Positions 26,300 to 33,613 of a stretch of 64,000 nt of DNA are shown piece by piece (the stretch's first letter is position 1; every line of letters starts with the position of its first letter). This stretch comes from an uncultured Gemmatimonadales bacterium (GTDB lineage: Bacteria; Gemmatimonadota; Gemmatimonadetes; Gemmatimonadales; Gemmatimonadaceae): positions 288,001 through 352,000 of the forward strand of contig CAWBZV010000005.1 in assembly GCA_963793305.1 (NCBI GenBank). The letters run 5' to 3'. The notes under the pieces were generated by a model. The model searched no databases and had not been told where the DNA came from. It saw only the letters and a program-made list of their open reading frames with translations. A program made the position numbers and the translations under genes.

Positions 26300-26526
26300 C
26301 TTCGTGCCGCAGGTGCTCTCACTTCGTGTCCGCAGGTGCTCCCACTTCGTGCCCGCAGGCGCTCTCACTTCGTGTCCGCAGGTGCTCCCACTTCGTGCCC
26401 GCAGGCGCTCTCACTTCGTGTCCGCAGGTGCTCCCACTTCGTGCCCGCAGGTGCTCCCACTTCGTGTCCGCAGGTGCTCCCACTTCGTGCCCGCAGGTGC
26501 TCCCACTTCGTGCCGCAGGTCCTCTC
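26300..26526. repeat. Tandem array of a 23-bp unit CTTCGTG(T/C)CCGCAGG(T/C)GCTC(C/T)CA, about 10 copies, no spacers
   Basis: Units start at 26300, 26322, 26345, 26368, 26391, 26414, 26437, 26460, 26483, 26506. Confidence 0.95.
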
Positions 26527-26643: not shown

Positions 26644-27892
26644 TCACGCCTCGGTGACGGCGTTCCGTTCCATAAGCCACTTGAACACTTTATCCTCGGT
26701 GACGCCGCGCTCGATCTCACGAAGCCGCCCGGCTTTCTGGAGCGACGCATACACCTCAGCCACGTTCGCTTTCCGTTTCGCCGCGGTCTCGGCGATCCGA
26801 TCATCGACCTCGGCCTCGGTCGCCCCGAGTTTCTCTTTCTCAGCCACCGCATCGATGATGAGATCGCGCCTCACCTGCCGCTCGGCCATCGCATTGAACT
26901 CGGTCGTGAACCGCCCACGATCCTCCTGCGGGATCTGATATGCATTGGCATACGCGTCGACGAGCTGCGCCACCCAACTCGGCGGGACGTTCGAACGGAT
27001 TCGCGCTGGCGATCTCGTCGAGCAACTTCTGCCGCACTGCCGCATCCGCGTCGCGCGTCGCATGCTCCTCGAGATCCGTCCGCACGGTCTTTTTCAATGC
27101 GTCGAGCGAATCAAAATCCCCGACTTCCCGCGCGAACGCATCGTCGAGCGGAGGCAACACTTTGCGCTTGACGTCCTGCAAGGTCACGCGCACGGGCTTC
27201 GTCTTGTCTCTTTGGGTCTCGTCGGGGAAGTCCGAAGGCCACTTGACCGGCCGCTCGATCGTCTGACCGGGCTTGGCCTCCATGATCAGCTCTTCGATCC
27301 CGGGAATCGCCTGGCCGCCGCCGAGCACGATGCGATACTCCTTGCCTTCGGCCGGGATGGCCCCGTTGTCGTCAGCCGTCGCCAGCAGCACCGTCACGAG
27401 GTCGCCCGGCGACGGGCTCTCGTCAAGCGGCGCCCATGTGGCGCGCTGATCGCGCATCTGCTCGATCTGCTCGGTGACATCGTCGTCCCGCACCACATTC
27501 GTGGGGCGCTCGACGCGGAACCCGGCGAGCCGCGGCAGCGGCACTTCGGGCCGAACCTCCAGGTGCAACTCGAACGTCAGATCCTGACCTTCAGCGAACT
27601 TCACATCGTGCACGTGTGGCTGAGCCGCCGGCTTGAGATGCTCTTTCTCCAGCGCCTGCTTGGCCGCTTCCTGGATCAACGACTCGATCGCCTGCTGCCG
27701 GATCGCTTCCCCAAACCGCTTCCTTACCATCGCCGCCGGCGCCTTGCCGGGGCGGAACCCCGGCAGCCGCACGTTCGACGCATATCGCTGCGCCGCCGAC
27801 TCCTCGGCCACCAGCACGTCGGCGGCCGGCACCGAGACCTCCAGCAGCCGTTCGGCGCCCGTTGTTTTCTTAGCTGTTACCTGGATGTTCAT
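26644..27892 (-). CDS. tig: Trigger factor (+1 frameshift near 26990)
   Basis: LPGFRPGKAP, FKBP-like IPGIEELI; C-terminal helices in the second frame; tig-clpP-clpX-lon order. Confidence 0.93.
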
Positions 27893-27901
27893 AGGGGAAT
27901 A

Positions 27902-28342
27902 TTAACCCCCGCCCTTGGGCCGCGCTCGCAGATGCCGCTGCTGGCCCACGGCGTATGCCTCACGGAGCCAGCTCACAAAATCGCTATCGATCTCGCCGGG
28001 TTCGGTCAGGCGGAACACATGCACATGATTCCGCGCCGAAATCGTGTCAATGCGCCGGAACCTTGGGTGCTCCAAACGCCTCGCCAGCACGACATGGCCG
28101 TCGAGCCATTTACGCCGGGGCGTCACCTGCGCAAACGACATTCTCACCTGAAACGCTATTCGGGTCTTCTCAGGGAGAACGATGACGGGGCCGATGCCTT
28201 TGACGGCGGCCACCACCGCCTCGTAAAGCGCCTTGACCCGCGGCTCGACTTTCTCGAAGTGGTGCGCCAGGTCGTGGCGCCCGCACGCATGCGACTGATT
28301 CGCATTAGCGAATCGCCGCCCACACTTGGCGCAGCGCCACAT
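27902..28342 (-). CDS. DUF5655-like protein with N-terminal CxxC...HxC motif
   Basis: MWRCAKCGRRFANANQSHACG, KTRIAFQVRMSFA, WLREAYAVG. Confidence 0.7.
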   Translation of the reverse strand: MWRCAKCGRRFANANQSHACGRHDLAHHFEKVEPRVKALYEAVVAAVKGIGPVIVLPEKTRIAFQVRMSFAQVTPRRKWLDGHVVLARRLEHPRFRRIDTISARNHVHVFRLTEPGEIDSDFVSWLREAYAVGQQRHLRARPKGGG

Positions 28343-28344
28343 AG

Positions 28345-28397
28345 ATGCTCGGGGCGGGACTTGAACCCGCACGTCTTTTGGACACAGGATCCTAAGT
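28345..28397 (-). repeat. att site: displaced 3' half of tRNA-Leu
   Basis: Near-identical to 33531-33582; exact 17-bp identity GACACAGGATCCTAAGT ending at the anticodon loop. Confidence 0.92.
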
Positions 28398-28975
28398 TCT
28401 GCCCAGTCGCAGCGAGCGGTCCCGCCCCCCTCTAAAGATAGAAGCAAGAAACGGCACGACGAACCAACGAACGGCAGGGTCGCGGTCACAGTTCTGATCA
28501 CAGCGCGACCCGTTGGAAAGTCCCGCGCACATCGCGATACCGAGGGCCACGCGGTAGGTCGTGAGACGGCGCGAACGCTCGCCCCGCCCTTACCCGTTAA
28601 GGTACAACCGGGGCCCGCCAGGGCGCCGGCTAGGCCGGCATCAGCCGGCCGTGGCGCTGTTGATCGTCTGGAGCGCGTCGCGGGCAATCGCGGTCATACG
28701 GAGCGCCTGGACGGCATCCTCGCCCGCGCGCTCACAGGAATCGCGCGTCGCACCGCCCAGCGCGGCGACCTGGGCCGCGCCCGTCTGCTGCGCGCCGTTG
28801 CCGGCGACACTGTGCCACACGCCCGCCGCGCCGAGTGGCGGCCGTGACGGCGATTGTGCCGGACCGCAATGCGCCCTCTACTAGCTGGCGCGCAGCGCGC
28901 GGGCGTAAGCGCGCTTCTCGATACGTTAGCACATCTCGTCACGACCGGCGCAAATCGAGACCCGACCGGCTCGTC

Positions 28976-29885
28976 ATGGCGGCCCGCGCCAAAGGATTGA
29001 CATACGCGATGGCCACGCGGCTCATGATGCTCAAGAGCCCACTCTGGCGGTCATATCGCAACACGCTGTTCTGCACGGACTGCATCACGTCGACTCCAGA
29101 GGGCGGACGGGCGAAACGTTGCGGCAATCAGATGGTGCATGGTGTGCGGCCGCATCCGCGCGGGCAAGGCGTTCCGGCGGTACTACCCCATCGTCAGCCG
29201 ATGGCGCGATGCCCAACACGTCATCCTGACGATCCCCAACGTCGCGCGGCTCGCGCTCGCCGGCGCCATCGACGCAATGTTCGTGGCAACGTCACACGTC
29301 ACGCGCACGATGCTACGTGTTCACGGTGTCCGCCTCGAGGCGCTGCGTAAGCTCGAGAACACTCACAACCCGGCGCCCCTCGACGGCGTGCGCGAAATGC
29401 ACCCGCACTTCCATTTCGTGGTCAAGACAGCGCGCATGGCCACGCTGATGGTGGACCTTTGGCTAGCGGCGTTCCCCGACGCGGTGCGTTGCGCGCAGAA
29501 GATCGTCCCTGCCGACGCGACCGTGGTCCACGAGCTTTTCAAGTATTTCACCAAGCTGGTGGCCAAGCGCGGGCATGCTGACGGATCGACGGCGACAGAG
29601 TTAGCCGATCCCGATGCGCTCGACATCATGTTCCGCGCAATGCGGCGCCGCCGCGTTTTTCAGCCGATCGGGTTCAAGGGGCTCGCGGTGGATGAAGAGG
29701 AGCCAATCCCTGACGATGAGATCGAGGCCGGCATCCGCACGCGCCTCGGCGAGCCCGGCACCGCGTGGTATTGGTCGCAAGATCGGCTCGACTGGTTGAA
29801 CGCGGCGGGCGTCGCGCTCGCCGGCCACGACCCGGGTAATCGGTTCCGTGAACTGGTCGAGGGCTACGGTCGCGGGCCGCCGTAA
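28976..29885 (+). CDS. HUH rolling-circle replication initiator, Rep_1/pC194-like (+1 frameshift near 29128)
   Basis: After correction: C...CGNRWCMVC zinc motif, motif 1 ILTIPN, motif 2 HPHFHFVV, motif 3 ELFKYFTK; start uncertain. Confidence 0.82.
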
Positions 29886-29957
29886 GGGGCCACGGTTCCC
29901 GGCAAAATCCATCCGAAATTCCGCGCGAAATCCTGGGGGCCGAGGGCCGACACCCCG

Positions 29958-30064
29958 GAGACCGAGCACGAGACCGAGCGTGAAACCGAGCGTGAATCTG
30001 AGCCGGAATCTGAGCCGGAATCTGAGCGGAACCCGAACCGGAACCCGAACCGGAACCCGAGCGC
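29958..30064. repeat. Drifting 12-bp tandem repeat (about 9 units) downstream of rep
   Basis: GAGACCGAGCAC/GAGACCGAGCGT/GAAACCGAGCGT/GAATCTGAGCCG x~3/GAACCCGAACCG x~3. Confidence 0.85.
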
Positions 30065-30088
30065 CCCCTGTTCCGCGCGATTCCCTCG

Positions 30089-30262
30089 CTACTTCCGCTT
30101 CGGCTCGTCGGCCCGTCGATCGGCTTCGCGCAGCAGAACCAAGCGCGCCCACGAGCTCATGTCGCGATGGTCGACCCATGCGGCGTGCTCTATGCGCTTC
30201 TTCTCTGCCAGGCTCAGCCGTATCACGAACCGCTGATCGCGCGTCTCAGGCGTCTTAGGCAT
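30089..30262 (-). CDS. Small ribbon-helix-helix-like DNA-binding protein (57 aa)
   Basis: RDQRFVIRLSLAEKKRIEHAAW...MSSWARLVLL: beta strand-helix-helix pattern. Confidence 0.7.
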   Translation of the reverse strand: MPKTPETRDQRFVIRLSLAEKKRIEHAAWVDHRDMSSWARLVLLREADRRADEPKRK

Positions 30263-30385
30263 ACGAGGGCAACATAGGTACAATGGGGCGCCTTGTCTGT
30301 TTGCCTATGGGACATCTTAGGCGTCTTGTTGCACTCTGAGGCACACATCGCCTACATTCTCCGCCGACCTCACAACGGAGAGAAC

Positions 30386-30601
30386 ATGCACATGTCGAAC
30401 GTTGCGGCTCCCTGGTGGCTCGGCACCGCTATGGACGCGGTCATGTGCGGTGTCCTGATCTGGTCGATCATCACGCTGACGAAGCGGGCCAAGCGTACCA
30501 TGGACGAAGCGGACAAGGCCTTCGGCGGCATGGGTCGCGACATCGACCGCATACGCCGCGACCTCGGCGATGACGACGAGCCGTGGCAGCGGGAGAGTTG
30601 A
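30386..30601 (+). CDS. Small single-pass membrane protein
   Basis: GGAG RBS; hydrophobic AVMCGVLIWSIITL followed by KRAKR; TTGA coupling to the next ORF. Confidence 0.6.
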   Translation: MHMSNVAAPWWLGTAMDAVMCGVLIWSIITLTKRAKRTMDEADKAFGGMGRDIDRIRRDLGDDDEPWQRES

Positions 30602-30813
30602 CCAGCGTGGCCCCCGACGGCCGACGCCTAGCACCGCGAGACATTGACCGTCTGTTCGCTCTGTGCGATGCACTGACGGACTCGCTCATCTTCAAGTCGT
30701 GGCCGCCGACGCGCCGGGTATCCGTGCGGAGACTTTGGCGTCTCCATACGCAAGGGCGCCGATTGGCCGAGTACACGGCAGCGCTCATTGCACGACTCGA
30801 TCGGCGCCAATGA
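30598..30813 (+). CDS. Hypothetical protein (71 aa)
   Basis: 4-bp overlaps with both neighbours. Confidence 0.5.
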   Translation: MTSVAPDGRRLAPRDIDRLFALCDALTDSLIFKSWPPTRRVSVRRLWRLHTQGRRLAEYTAALIARLDRRQ

Positions 30814-31079
30814 TCGAGCCGGCTCCCGTCGTGGGCGTGATCGGGATCGTTATACGGCGCCTCCGAAAGCGCGCGGGTATATCGCAAGAACGCCTCGCTG
30901 CCGAGTCCGGAATCGACCGGAGTTACGTCGGGCGGGTCGAGCGGCACGGGGCGAGCGTCGGCATCGCGACCATGGACGCGTTACTCACCACGATCCGCGT
31001 ATCGTGGGCCGAGTTCGGCGCCGTCCTCGACGCCGAGCTAGCCTGTGCCGCGCGCGACAAAGACCGGGGGACGCGATGA
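30810..31079 (+). CDS. XRE family HTH regulator (R-M controller-like)
   Basis: IRRLRKRAGISQERLAAESGIDRSYVGRVERH. Confidence 0.88.
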   Translation: MIEPAPVVGVIGIVIRRLRKRAGISQERLAAESGIDRSYVGRVERHGASVGIATMDALLTTIRVSWAEFGAVLDAELACAARDKDRGTR

Positions 31080-31354
31080 TCCGGCGCTACACGGCCGAGA
31101 CATCCGTGATGGTCGCGGAGATTCTAAAGCGCCATCGTCGCCGGATGAATGTCTCGCAAGAGCGCTTGGCGCACATGGCCGACGTTGACCGCACGTATGT
31201 GGGCAAGGTCGAACGTGGCATCTTGAATCCAACACTTGCTAGGTTCGACCGGTTGTTGGGTGCAATGGGCGTCACGTGGAAGGACTTCGGCGAAAGCCTC
31301 GATACGGAACTGGCCAAGCAGTTGGCAGGGTCGCCGCCGCACCCGCGCTCCTAG
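31076..31354 (+). CDS. XRE family HTH regulator (R-M controller-like), second copy
   Basis: SQERLAHMADVDRTYVGKVERGILNPTL. Confidence 0.88.
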   Translation: MIRRYTAETSVMVAEILKRHRRRMNVSQERLAHMADVDRTYVGKVERGILNPTLARFDRLLGAMGVTWKDFGESLDTELAKQLAGSPPHPRS

Positions 31355-31480
31355 CCGCTTTATGCGCCCACCCAGGGGCGGCCGCGCGCCAGCTACGCGG
31401 CGGCCCATTGAACATCGGCGTTATGGATGTTATTCGTCCAGTGGTTCCATAAACCACTAACCACAAACCCACGAGGTGAA

Positions 31481-31777
31481 ATGGCGTACTGGCAACCGCA
31501 GAACGGCGTGTTCAAGGATAGAGCGGGGAACTACCACATCCGCCTGTACGCGCGCGACAAGTGGGGGATCGAGTGGCGTGCGGAGGTTCCGCTTCAAGGA
31601 CGTGTGCCGGCTGCGGTGGCCGCCCGAGTGCTAGGGGTCAGTCCACAGACGATCAGCAACTGGATCGCGTCCGGAGGTTTTTCGACGGCGGCCCGAATTG
31701 TAGGGAACGCGCGCACCGTAGCGGTGCGGGACATTGTCGCTCTAGCTGTCAAAAATGGGTGGGTACAGCCCGAGTAG
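31481..31777 (+). CDS. Small protein with C-terminal HTH
   Basis: GAGGTG RBS; AAVAARVLGVSPQTISNWIASG. Confidence 0.7.
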   Translation: MAYWQPQNGVFKDRAGNYHIRLYARDKWGIEWRAEVPLQGRVPAAVAARVLGVSPQTISNWIASGGFSTAARIVGNARTVAVRDIVALAVKNGWVQPE

Positions 31778-31809
31778 AGATCGTTTGCAAACCACTTAGG
31801 GAGGAGAAC

Positions 31810-31962
31810 ATGTCGCCGACAAAACGGGAATTAGAGGACCGGGTCGATGAATTGGAGTCGCTTGTAGAGGATCTCACGGAGCGCGGGCGCCAGGCCCTCG
31901 GCTACGATAACGCCGAGGATGCAAGCGAATCCGATCAGGATTCGTCCGAGGACGACGAGTGA
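31810..31962 (+). CDS. Very acidic 50-aa protein
   Basis: GGAGGAG RBS; MSPTKRELEDRVDELESLVEDL...DSSEDDE (19 of 50 residues D/E). Confidence 0.65.
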   Translation: MSPTKRELEDRVDELESLVEDLTERGRQALGYDNAEDASESDQDSSEDDE

Positions 31963-31976
31963 ACGGCACGAAACGC

Positions 31977-32011
31977 AGACCGCCCGCACGATCGGACTAG
32001 GCGGGCGGTCT
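31977..32011. terminator. Perfect 11-bp hairpin between the small-gene cluster and xis
   Basis: AGACCGCCCGC-N13-GCGGGCGGTCT; no U-tract. Confidence 0.45.
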
Positions 32012-32075
32012 ACGATCCCCTAACCCTCAGCGGTTAGCCGTTCGCCCGGCCCGCTGATTGATCGGAGTTAGCAGA

Positions 32076-32357
32076 ATGCATTCCGATGACCGAAAGATCC
32101 CCCCAGTGGAGCCAGAACACAACGGGCGCGATTCCGTTGCCGGCTCACCTGCCGATCCATTGCTCAAACCGCGCGATGCTGCGCGATACCTCGCGATGTC
32201 GATTCGGCAACTCAGCGACCGGCCGGATATTCCGCGCGTAGACACCGCGCGCTCTGGCGCGAGACGGCGGCAAATCCGCTATCGCAAGAGTGACCTCGAC
32301 CGCTTCATAGTGTCGCGTCAGATCGGCCAGATGACCTTTCCGTGGGGGGCCGACTAA
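32076..32357 (+). CDS. Excisionase-like HTH protein
   Basis: LLKPRDAARYLAMS...IRYRKSDLDRFI; TAATG overlap with the integrase. Confidence 0.8.
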   Translation: MHSDDRKIPPVEPEHNGRDSVAGSPADPLLKPRDAARYLAMSIRQLSDRPDIPRVDTARSGARRRQIRYRKSDLDRFIVSRQIGQMTFPWGAD

Positions 32358-33442
32358 TGTGGCGCCGTGGCCGACAATACTGGAGTTGGGTCTACACGAG
32401 CGAGGGCCGCGTTCGGCGGTCCCTCGATACCGCGGACTCGACAACGGCGCGCGAAATCGAACGAATGCTGGGCACGCTCCGCGAGCGTCGCGAATGGCGA
32501 TTGCTCAACGCGGCGGCGCGCGGTAGCCTCGGGGTGGGGAAGTTGCTCGACTTCTGGCGCCGCGAGGGCGACGGCATCGCGGAGCTGCGCGCGCAGCTCG
32601 ACGACGTAAACCTGAACGACCATGTCGATGGCTGGCGCACGTGGGTTTGCGGTCACGCAGACGAGTCCACGGCCGACACGTACGTTCGGCAACTGCGCGC
32701 CCTCATTCCCGACGACAAGCCGTTTTTGCGGTCCGCGTTCACGCGCGTGACAATCTTCACGGCCCTGTACGCGCTGGCGGGTAGTAACTCGACCAAGAAG
32801 AGATACGCCGCCGCGTGGTCATCCTTCTCGCGGTACCTGGTCGAGCGGGAAGTGCTGGAGTCGAACCCGTTGCGTTTGATCACCGTGCCGAGCAACAACA
32901 AGCCTCGCGAGATATGGCTTGATCTTCCCGACTCGACTCGTCTCGTCAAAGCGCAGCCGGCGCCGTTCCGCGCGATGGCCGCGTTGCGCGAGGGCGCGGG
33001 CGTCGAGATTTCGGCGGCACTTACGGTGCGGCGCCGAGACGTTGACGAGCGCGGTCACATTGTGCACGTCCACGGGACCAAGAACGCCCGCCGGGACCGG
33101 GCCGTGTTGGTCGACGATTGGGCATGGCCGATCTTCATGGAGGCTGTGCGGGGCAAGCTGCCGGATGCCCTGTTGTTCGACGGCGTGACGAGGTTCGTCG
33201 CGCTCAACGTCCATCGGGCGGCCGTGAAGGCGCTCGGCCTGCCCTCCGCGTATACCATGCACGACAGCCGGCACAGCTACGCCGTGCGGTGGATGAAGGC
33301 CGGGGCGAACCCCCAGGACATCGCCAACAACCTCGGTCACCGGGACGCGTCCCAGGTGATCAAGTGCTATGGGAAGTACCGGCACTCTCTGGACGATCTG
33401 CGCCGCGCCCGCGAGGCCCGGAAGGGAAGGGCATCGCGATGA
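32357..33442 (+). CDS. Tyrosine recombinase/integrase
   Basis: SNPL, HGTKN, HDSRHSYA, LGH...Y; adjacent to the tRNA att site. Confidence 0.9.
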   Translation: MWRRGRQYWSWVYTSEGRVRRSLDTADSTTAREIERMLGTLRERREWRLLNAAARGSLGVGKLLDFWRREGDGIAELRAQLDDVNLNDHVDGWRTWVCGHADESTADTYVRQLRALIPDDKPFLRSAFTRVTIFTALYALAGSNSTKKRYAAAWSSFSRYLVEREVLESNPLRLITVPSNNKPREIWLDLPDSTRLVKAQPAPFRAMAALREGAGVEISAALTVRRRDVDERGHIVHVHGTKNARRDRAVLVDDWAWPIFMEAVRGKLPDALLFDGVTRFVALNVHRAAVKALGLPSAYTMHDSRHSYAVRWMKAGANPQDIANNLGHRDASQVIKCYGKYRHSLDDLRRAREARKGRASR

Positions 33443-33531
33443 GCGCGGTCACGATTCTGGTCACAGCGCCCGCCGCTACCGCTTCGCCCGCGGCCGCTGA
33501 TGAGAGCGCAAATCGCGGTGCTGTACCGACA

Positions 33532-33613
33532 TGCTCGGAGCGGGACTCGAACCCGCACGTCTTTCGACACAGGATCCTAAGTCCTGCGCGTCTGCCAGTT
33601 TCGCCACCCGAGC
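33532..33613 (-). tRNA. tRNA-Leu (anticodon TAG), 82 nt, no encoded CCA
   Basis: GCTCGGGTGGCGAAACTGGCAGACGCG-CAGGA CTTAGGA TCCTG-long variable arm-GCGGGTTCGAGTCCCGC-TCCGAGCA. Confidence 0.95.

Follow-up and report, generated by a model that had tools for sequence, protein, structure and literature searches.

A 5,185-bp element in a tRNA-Leu gene of a Gemmatimonadota bacterium is a likely integrated rolling-circle replicon and encodes an integrase with glutamate at a catalytic arginine position

Integrated elements that pair a site-specific integrase with a rolling-circle initiator are a known kind. Described examples are integrative and conjugative elements of actinomycetes (AICEs) of the pSAM2 type, integrative mobilizable elements (IMEs) with Rep-type relaxases, and integrated plasmids with HUH Reps. 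Here, we describe such an element, resembling an AICE without its transfer gene, in a 64,000-nucleotide window from an uncultured Gemmatimonadales bacterium. It is 5,185 bp long, site-specifically integrated in tRNA-Leu(TAG) and flanked internally by arm-type repeats. We conclude that it is likely to be an integrated rolling-circle replicon belonging to a Gemmatimonadota family. The layout of this family is attachment (att) site, origin, Rep_1, cargo slot, helix-turn-helix (HTH) gene, acidic peptide, excisionase (Xis), integrase (Int) and tRNA. To our knowledge, few mobile elements have been described in Gemmatimonadota.

Like the element, pSAM2-type AICEs combine a tyrosine Int, Xis, a tRNA target, a rolling-circle Rep, a pC194-type nick site and regulators (PMC2440964). 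Unlike them, it has no FtsK/SpoIIIE translocase, and so is not self-transmissible; none was found in its open reading frames (ORFs) or in the scanned ORFs of its relatives. Its Rep belongs to PF01446 and lies at the end opposite int, the element is half the size, and the phylum differs. Streptococcal IMEs share an Int and a Rep-type nickase, and 35 of 118 lack a coupling protein (PMC5704250). The element similarly has its own integration module and nickase with no mating pore, as expected of an IME. However, the streptococcal nickases are of the Rep_trans, Rep_2, PHA00330 or Viral_Rep type, not Rep_1, and most of these IMEs encode TcpA. Integrated HUH-Rep plasmids (pCRESS and orphan clusters; Kazlauskas et al. 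2019) also integrate site-specifically, encode an HUH Rep and have no virion genes (PMC6668415). In contrast, pCRESS Reps are nuclease-SF3 helicase fusions, whereas the Rep described here, of about 300 aa, has the Rep_1 domain alone and no helicase. Main-text passages of PMC6668415 contain no Gemmatimonadota cluster. Rolling-circle plasmids of the pC194/pUB110 family share the Rep family and nick motif but are free and have no integration module. Finally, PICMI satellites are about 6 kb, with int, an HTH_17/AlpA-type gene, a variable cargo slot and no capsid genes. However, PICMIs need a primase and are located at fis (PMC10803314), and no helper phage is known for the element.

Hence, the general design is unsurprising. 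An earlier reading of the window, made from the letters alone (hereafter the sequence-only reading), had named it the best candidate there for a novel system. It is not a new kind of system, because a tRNA-integrated combination of a rolling-circle Rep with Int and Xis is known from pSAM2 and integrated HUH-Rep plasmids. Its narrower suggestion, an integrative rolling-circle plasmid of possibly undescribed type, is supported at the level of the family, on the nick motif, small-circle Rep relatives, nine relatives of the same layout and the lack of a published description. The Rep_1-plus-Int family of Gemmatimonadota is apparently undescribed. No account of it was found in the literature searched, which consisted mostly of main-text passages of open-access papers. 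Nothing matching occurs in the passages available from PMC6813254, PMC12595487, 10.64898/2026.01.13.699239 and PMC13386836. The most distinctive aspects are a Glu-type integrase, a conserved HTH-acidic module and a slot for defence cargo. Overall, what the sequence-only reading observed was confirmed, and its interpretation was partly supported.

The ends of the element were located by comparison with related genomes. Identical 17-bp att cores lie at 28381-28397 and 33566-33582, with the spacing of 5,185 bp already recognised. The surrounding repeat copies (28345-28402 and 33531-33587; 57-58 nt) are 91% alike, far above chance (blastn E 6e-14), and overlap the 3' half of tRNA-Leu(TAG). In G001, a genome of the same genus, the locus is an empty site. 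There, the 5' half of the host tRNA is followed by the displaced-copy sequence and then by the DNA found left of 28345. The displaced tRNA end matches the G001 tRNA (L116) at 98% over 104 nt, and the match continues into host DNA. Therefore, the crossover fell within the 17-bp core and the element is 5,185 bp. These comparisons show that it entered tRNA-Leu(TAG) inside the core, which spans the anticodon loop. They also show that it replaced the 3' half of the host tRNA with its own copy, differing in four places. The rebuilt gene, host 5' half plus element 3' half, occupies 33532-33613 on the minus strand (core 33566-33582) and was identified by tRNA prediction, Rfam and G001. The displaced original 3' half forms the distal att site at 28345-28402, also on the minus strand (core 28381-28397), as its match to the empty site indicates. 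The element proper spans 28398-33582. Hence, the extent of 28345-33582 proposed previously held a real element but included a displaced host tRNA end (28345-28380). In G003 and G005 nothing is inserted directly behind the tRNA. With G001, all three same-genus loci that were read have no insertion; tRNA-Leu(TAG) was not located in the other two same-genus genomes.

Pairs of direct repeats lie inside both ends. The left pair is at 28481-28506 (plus strand; repeat family D3). The right pair is at 33444-33469 (plus strand). Left and right pairs share 19 of 22 positions, compared to a maximum of 16 of 22 in 60 random pairs. Arm-type repeats in other elements with the same Int family score 17-21 in 9 of 12 cases. 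We infer that the paired terminal repeats are arm sites. GC content does not mark the element, an Rfam scan matched only the tRNA, and counts of promoters and terminators equalled those of shuffled sequences.

Nine Gemmatimonadota relatives pair Rep_1 with the same integrase between tRNA att sites (L005, L006, L032, L126, L134, L136, L114, L025 and L007+L130). Searching for such pairs had been recommended at tRNA-Leu; those with both ends sit at tRNA-Met or tRNA-Leu. L114 retains a Rep fragment only. The contig of L025 ends in Rep, so one end is missing. L007 and L130 are two contigs of one genome, apparently linked by an att fragment. Relatives with both ends measure 6.4-10.2 kb. Rep adjoins the distal att site and Int adjoins the tRNA. 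Defence-type cargo lies between Rep and Int in eight of the nine. It includes EcoRI-, MmeI-, XamI-, XhoI- and BglII-type restriction-modification, GmrSD, AbiJ and an OLD ATPase with UvrD, which we take to be Gabija-like. L134 carries DsbA-type genes. The copy described here has five small ORFs in this slot. Because eight of nine relatives have defence genes at that place, we conclude that it is a minimal, nearly cargo-free member of the family and not a virus remnant. The earlier description, in which nearly all the genes serve replication, integration or regulation, thus suits this copy but not its relatives. These are larger through cargo, not through machinery missing here, which bears on the idea of a remnant. 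The family supplies a compact backbone for integration and replication, with exact att sites and a slot for defence cargo in which new systems can be sought.

Other parts of the backbone vary. HTH and acidic genes are common to six of the nine relatives. Profiles not built from the sequences concerned recovered the HTH gene in L005, L134 and L239, and the acidic peptide in L005, L032, L126 and L239. The Reps of L126, L134 and L136 come from a distant Rep_1 clade, and therefore the replication gene has been exchanged within the family. The close Rep clade is rare, occurring in 7 of 401 genomes of the phylum, including the host. From the integrase side, 32 of 401 genomes in the order gave matches. 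In place of Rep_1, other elements of this Int family have a D5 primase, DnaB or phage genes, or lack a replicase.

The Rep_1 gene is split in the assembly, with its two parts in different frames and a +1 shift near 29129. The N-terminal part (28976-29129, plus strand) contains RARAK-like and SYRNT motifs and the first Cys pair. It is a second match of the Rep profile and is 42% identical to P0003 over 57 aa (E 5e-9). The C-terminal part (29130-29885, plus strand), one base out of frame, contains the HUH motif in the form HPHFH and the FKYFTK motif. It matches PF01446 with E 2.6e-4, at 21 bits and so under the 33.2 cut-off. The sequence-only reading was thus right to name an HUH Rep, though not as one ORF. 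We found 242 Rep homologues, the best at 44% identity, and PF01446 was present in 119 of 119 listed. The HUH motif and the catalytic Tyr motif (KYFTK) are conserved in the alignment.

A predicted double-strand origin precedes the gene at 28917-28936 (plus strand). It has a pC194-type nick motif in the form CTCGATAC. CTTGAT is the nick site of the pC194 family (PMC2440964), and the motif matches a site of this type near a rep gene. At the DNA level the motif is conserved in 79 of the 87 Rep loci whose upstream sequence was long enough, compared to 0 of 162 control windows. It lies 170-330 bases upstream of the first Cys motif. The C variant seen here also occurs in five other loci. No significant hairpin surrounds the origin (z -0.73 and -0.37). 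Neither this motif nor the split Rep figured in the sequence-only reading, and the same is true of the integrase substitution described below.

We considered whether Rep is intact in the living cell. Measured against G001 over 46.3 kb of coding DNA, the assembly contains 12 net frameshifts (about 0.26 per kb), every one an insertion; this count excludes a further cluster within a tandem array. Single-base insertions at 26991 and 34901 split the host genes tig and degP. These are assembly errors, because short-read contigs do not contain them. About one such insertion is expected in the coding DNA of the element and one is seen. The +1 shift near 29129 may be such an error. A second shift, between the origin and the start of Rep, is a net deletion. 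Since the N-terminal reading frame stays open through the origin, this second shift may do no harm. Rep departs from the consensus at 3 of 47 conserved columns, and as many departures occur in 26 of 116 homologues, a set picked by likeness to the query; Int departs at 1 of 54. By this measure, Rep shows no excess decay. On balance, we lean slightly towards an intact Rep.

The integrase (32357-33442, plus strand; PF00589, phrog_1) has an arm-binding N-terminus. Profile alignment places Glu217 opposite the first catalytic Arg of XerA (G-L-R). Among 120 homologues, including the element's own, this position is Glu in 119 and Asp in one. K242, H302, R305, H328 and Y338 are kept in 117-119 of the 120. 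Hence, five of the six residues in the R-K-H-R-H-Y set remain, the first Arg is replaced and the canonical set is incomplete. R246 and R248 are near-invariant (119 and 120 of 120, respectively). In XerA, the residue corresponding to R248 is Arg and that corresponding to R246 is Lys; R246 is hence new relative to XerA and is the candidate substitute. In IntDOT a downstream Arg replaces the absent first catalytic Arg, and in IntDes the Arg is shifted (PMC8138268). By analogy with IntDOT, Arg246 (preferred) or Arg248 probably stands in for the first Arg. Thus, the absent or shifted first Arg is shared with IntDOT (IntCTnDOT) and IntDes, whereas a near-invariant Glu at this position is not, and Gemmatimonadota go unmentioned in the main-text passages of PMC8138268. 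The literature searched held no paper on a Glu-type tyrosine recombinase.

Glu217 could be read as the mark of a dead integrase. We reject this, since almost every homologue has this Glu and the remaining catalytic residues are retained. The fold is ordinary for the lambda Int/Xer/Cre group (model pLDDT 94.6; Foldseek match to XerA, E 5e-10). Consistent with function, elements that encode Glu-type Ints and are bounded by paired att sites are found at several tRNAs. Judged by residue conservation, Int is probably active. The replacement of Arg by Glu offers a variant of tyrosine recombinase catalysis that can be tested directly.

The preferred account of the element, drawn from knowledge of these protein families, is as follows. 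Int and Xis would act through the arm repeats to excise a 5,185-bp circle. Rep would nick the origin (CTCG/ATAC), and host enzymes would help to copy the circle by rolling-circle replication. While the element is integrated, the HTH, XRE and ribbon-helix-helix (RHH) proteins would repress excision and replication. Since it has no transfer genes, the element would have to hitch. Rolling-circle plasmids are transferred by phages as concatemers. The movement of plasmids by phages is reportedly the topic of PMC5615212. We tentatively favour non-specific phage transduction or DNA uptake as the route of spread. A conjugative helper, with Rep as relaxase, is also quite possible. Carriage as a dedicated satellite is unlikely and any other route more unlikely still. 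The family would usually pay its way by defence cargo, in place of which this copy has five small ORFs. A bolder interpretation is that undescribed helper-dependent rolling-circle "hitchers" ferry Gemmatimonadota defence systems. They would use a rewired Int (Glu for the first Arg, with a hairpin Arg in its place) and a conserved acidic peptide acting as a DNA mimic or helper-responsive switch. Rep_1 and D5 primase would be swappable as the replication gene of a shared HTH-acidic-Xis-Int module. We regard this combination as rather unlikely.

Several observations weigh against a functional rolling-circle replicon, and some of them would suit a stranded copy that is dead for replication. Such a copy, with real Rep frameshifts, would at most excise and would be decaying after the loss of its cargo. 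Rep is broken as assembled, with two frame shifts within about 200 bp, and no listed short-read contig spans 28925-29406. The shift between the origin and Rep is a deletion, outside the pattern of 12 insertions in 12 assembly errors, and in 73 of 79 relatives the origin and Rep share one frame. In a quick tree (60 of 92 rows after removal of near-duplicates) the Rep branch is long, at 1.48 compared to a median of 0.52. Within the family, Reps are often dead or missing (L023, L113, L114 and L132), decayed relatives exist and this copy has no defence cargo. The short-read contigs listed yielded no circle, joined att site or rise in copy number for the element. None of 32 circular Rep contigs has this integrase family. 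Most family loci were found via Rep, which biases the count. In an integrase-led sample (20 of 33 non-self places, 9 with paired att sites) just 3 of the 9 paired-att elements have Rep_1, and Int therefore does not define the family. Against a dead copy, the shift at 29129 is an insertion, the type of all 12 host shifts, and Rep shows no excess decay at conserved columns. The shift between the origin and Rep need not harm, with the N-terminal frame open through the origin. Both ends, the arm repeats and the gene coupling are intact. This copy may be disabled, but we consider that the less probable outcome.

The remaining alternatives differ in how the element would travel. It may be an IME in which Rep_1 is mainly a relaxase and the origin doubles as oriT for helper conjugation. 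Rep_1 of pC194 and pUB110 serves ICEBs1 as a relaxase, and Rep-type relaxases occur in 118 of 144 streptococcal IMEs (PMC5714925, PMC5704250). The host has two VirD4-type genes, Trb-type pore genes and a MOBP element headed by a 41% identical Int paralogue. However, no Rep_1 is among the IME relaxases listed in the passages of PMC5704250. The known cases need a TcpA-type coupling protein (PMC5704250), whereas the couplers found in the host are VirD4-type, and no coupling protein was recognised in the scanned ORFs of relatives. We consider this reading possible but not likely. A dedicated PICMI-like phage satellite, with Rep_1 in place of primase, concatemers packaged by a helper and small ORFs handling the helper, is improbable. 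Small size, int and HTH_17 genes and a cargo hot spot do recall PICMIs (PMC10803314). The HTH-acidic-Xis module also occurs with a D5 primase elsewhere in the genome (L239), and primase elements and prophages use this Int family. However, the element has no primase, terminase or capsid-modifying gene, viral contigs contained no Rep-plus-Int element, and the 92% complete host genome gave no Terminase_6N match. Nothing links the element to a phage, and the helper-dependent satellite proposed by the sequence-only reading found no direct evidence. An inovirus, another small virus or a remnant of one has been largely refuted and is highly improbable. The Rep family does drive 8-15 kb virus-like replicons with endolysin or structural matches, and a 71-aa ORF with a hydrophobic stretch falls in the size class of inovirus coat proteins (PMC6813254). 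Against this, Zot/pI (PF05707) is missing from the element and from the 92% complete genome, and only Rep and Int exceed 120 aa. The hydrophobic ORF has no relatives and no counterpart in the nine related elements, Pfam scans of which found no virion genes. In the quick tree, Rep lies outside a clade (99% support) holding four virus-like rows, and its neighbours are GC-rich circles and Gemmatimonadota elements. That tree leaves out Reps lacking the anchoring motif, several virus-like ones among them.

Of the empty site and the circular form, the first was found in G001 and the second was not. The short-read contigs compared included runs X1, X3 and X4, of which X3 and X4 belong to 18 runs with a small word share. 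Among the contig joints listed, none skips 5,185 bp or closes a circle. One contig (X1 record 3) bridges the left junction, though its run may come from the source sample itself. The first 26 letters of X1 record 8 did not align; they could stem from an empty-site allele or from the tRNA of a different organism. Depths of X1 contigs are 2.6-4.5 inside the element and 8.6-13.4 on the flanks; such depth is not copy number and we draw nothing from it. The bridging contig stops at 28924, four bases beyond the predicted nick site, which may be chance in a single contig.

The wider Rep family was sampled as 97 loci fetched by Rep alignment, with the best 80 of 441 metagenome matches kept. Exact terminal repeats occur in 32 of the 97, mostly circles of 1.7-7 kb. 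Several replicons of 8-15 kb carry endolysin or structural matches and presumably resemble FLiP-type viruses. L028, L029, L068, L085, L096, L097, L019 and L022, of 8-15 kb and either circular or integrated, are virus-like, share this Rep family and origin, and consist mostly of ORFs that match no PHROG. Repeats that we read as dif-like bound L019 and L022. The Bacteroidota elements L021, L024 and L017 combine this Rep family with tyrosine recombinases that are unrelated; L017, a 6.9-kb circle, gives a weak 25% match to a different recombinase. The Rep query alone matched no viral contig, while the Rep alignment matched two loci, both virus-like. A phage collection gave one weak inovirus match (E 2e-4). 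A full-length Rep relative matches 395 plasmid records, the best rows at 25-29% identity.

All ten ORFs named previously are present, and Pfam and PHROGs agree with their labels: Rep_1, an Arc-like RHH protein, two HTH_3/XRE proteins, two HTH_17 proteins and a tyrosine integrase. The transmembrane (TM), unknown and acidic ORFs matched no family in either database. No virion, Zot, relaxase, translocase or transfer protein was matched among the element ORFs in these scans. This agrees with the sequence-only reading, which had recognised no Zot ATPase, capsid, relaxase or FtsK/T4SS, and the small ORFs gave no match to inovirus or other virion proteins. An RHH/Arc-like regulator of 57 aa lies at 30089-30262 on the minus strand (phrog_3431, E 6e-5). 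Its paralogue (47%) is elsewhere in the genome, upstream of a RES-domain gene. Facing away from it is a putative four-gene operon on the plus strand. The first gene (30386-30601), with a Shine-Dalgarno-like GGAGA, encodes the 71-aa protein that has an acidic tail as well as a single hydrophobic stretch (the TM ORF). Its sole match among 1.84 billion representatives is itself. A second 71-aa ORF (30598-30813) overlaps both neighbours and has no Pfam or PHROG family, homologue or usable Atlas match. Like the TM ORF, it has no counterpart in the nine relatives. XRE regulators follow at 30810-31079 (HTH_3, E 1e-10) and 31076-31354 (HTH_3, E 4e-10). The start-to-stop overlap of these four genes suggests one operon.

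Downstream, on the plus strand, are genes shared with the family. The first (31481-31777) encodes a 98-aa protein with a beta-hairpin and a BldC/Xis-like HTH (HTH_17, E 1e-5). Its model has a pLDDT of 85 and a weak Foldseek match to BldC (E 0.06), and all Atlas leads score under 0.9. The second (31810-31962) encodes a 50-aa helical peptide with an acidic tail, with homologues at the same position in relatives. The third (32076-32357), coupled to int, encodes an excisionase-like HTH_17 protein (E 1e-3; phrog_66, E 0.03), homologues of which immediately precede int in relatives. A non-coding array of 12-bp direct repeats (29961-30062, plus strand; repeat scan) was considered as a family trait and rejected, because non-coding arrays occur only here and in L032 among 17 elements scanned.

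The host genome (G000) has two further users of this Int family. One is the MOBP/VirD4 element at tRNA-Met (C2:869.5-886 kb; L004, L229), with the 41% Int paralogue at its head. Its genes are RadC, PIN, AAA/OLD, VirD4, a MOBP relaxase and a NikA-like protein, and it appears to be an IME using a Glu-type integrase. The other, at the end of C11 (L239:12400-16400), has two HTH genes, an acidic peptide, a D5 primase and Xis. It probably continues into Int at the start of C25 (L238), as the same module with another replicase. Trb-type pore genes at C3:776-784 kb (L233) look incomplete, as does a separate VirD4 with a TraF-like peptidase at C3:73-75 kb (L231). Among reduced members of the family, L113:8808-10747 is a 1.9-kb remnant with just an origin and the start of Rep. 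L132:11896-17446 is a 5.5-kb HTH-acidic-Xis-Int element in which no Rep was found. The 8.1-kb element at L128:2889-11040 has a Glu-type Int and a phage cement-protein gene, and is a possible capsid-forming satellite. At L112:9898-9993 ARAGORN predicts a "tRNA-Ser" that overlaps a 3' fragment of tRNA-Met; this is probably an att site called in error. In the window itself, a DUF5655 gene (27902-28342, minus strand) lies directly behind the displaced tRNA end, and its G001 copy has internal deletions. Ten copies of a 23-bp tandem repeat (26300-26524) separate tig and clpP, where the G001 counterpart differs.

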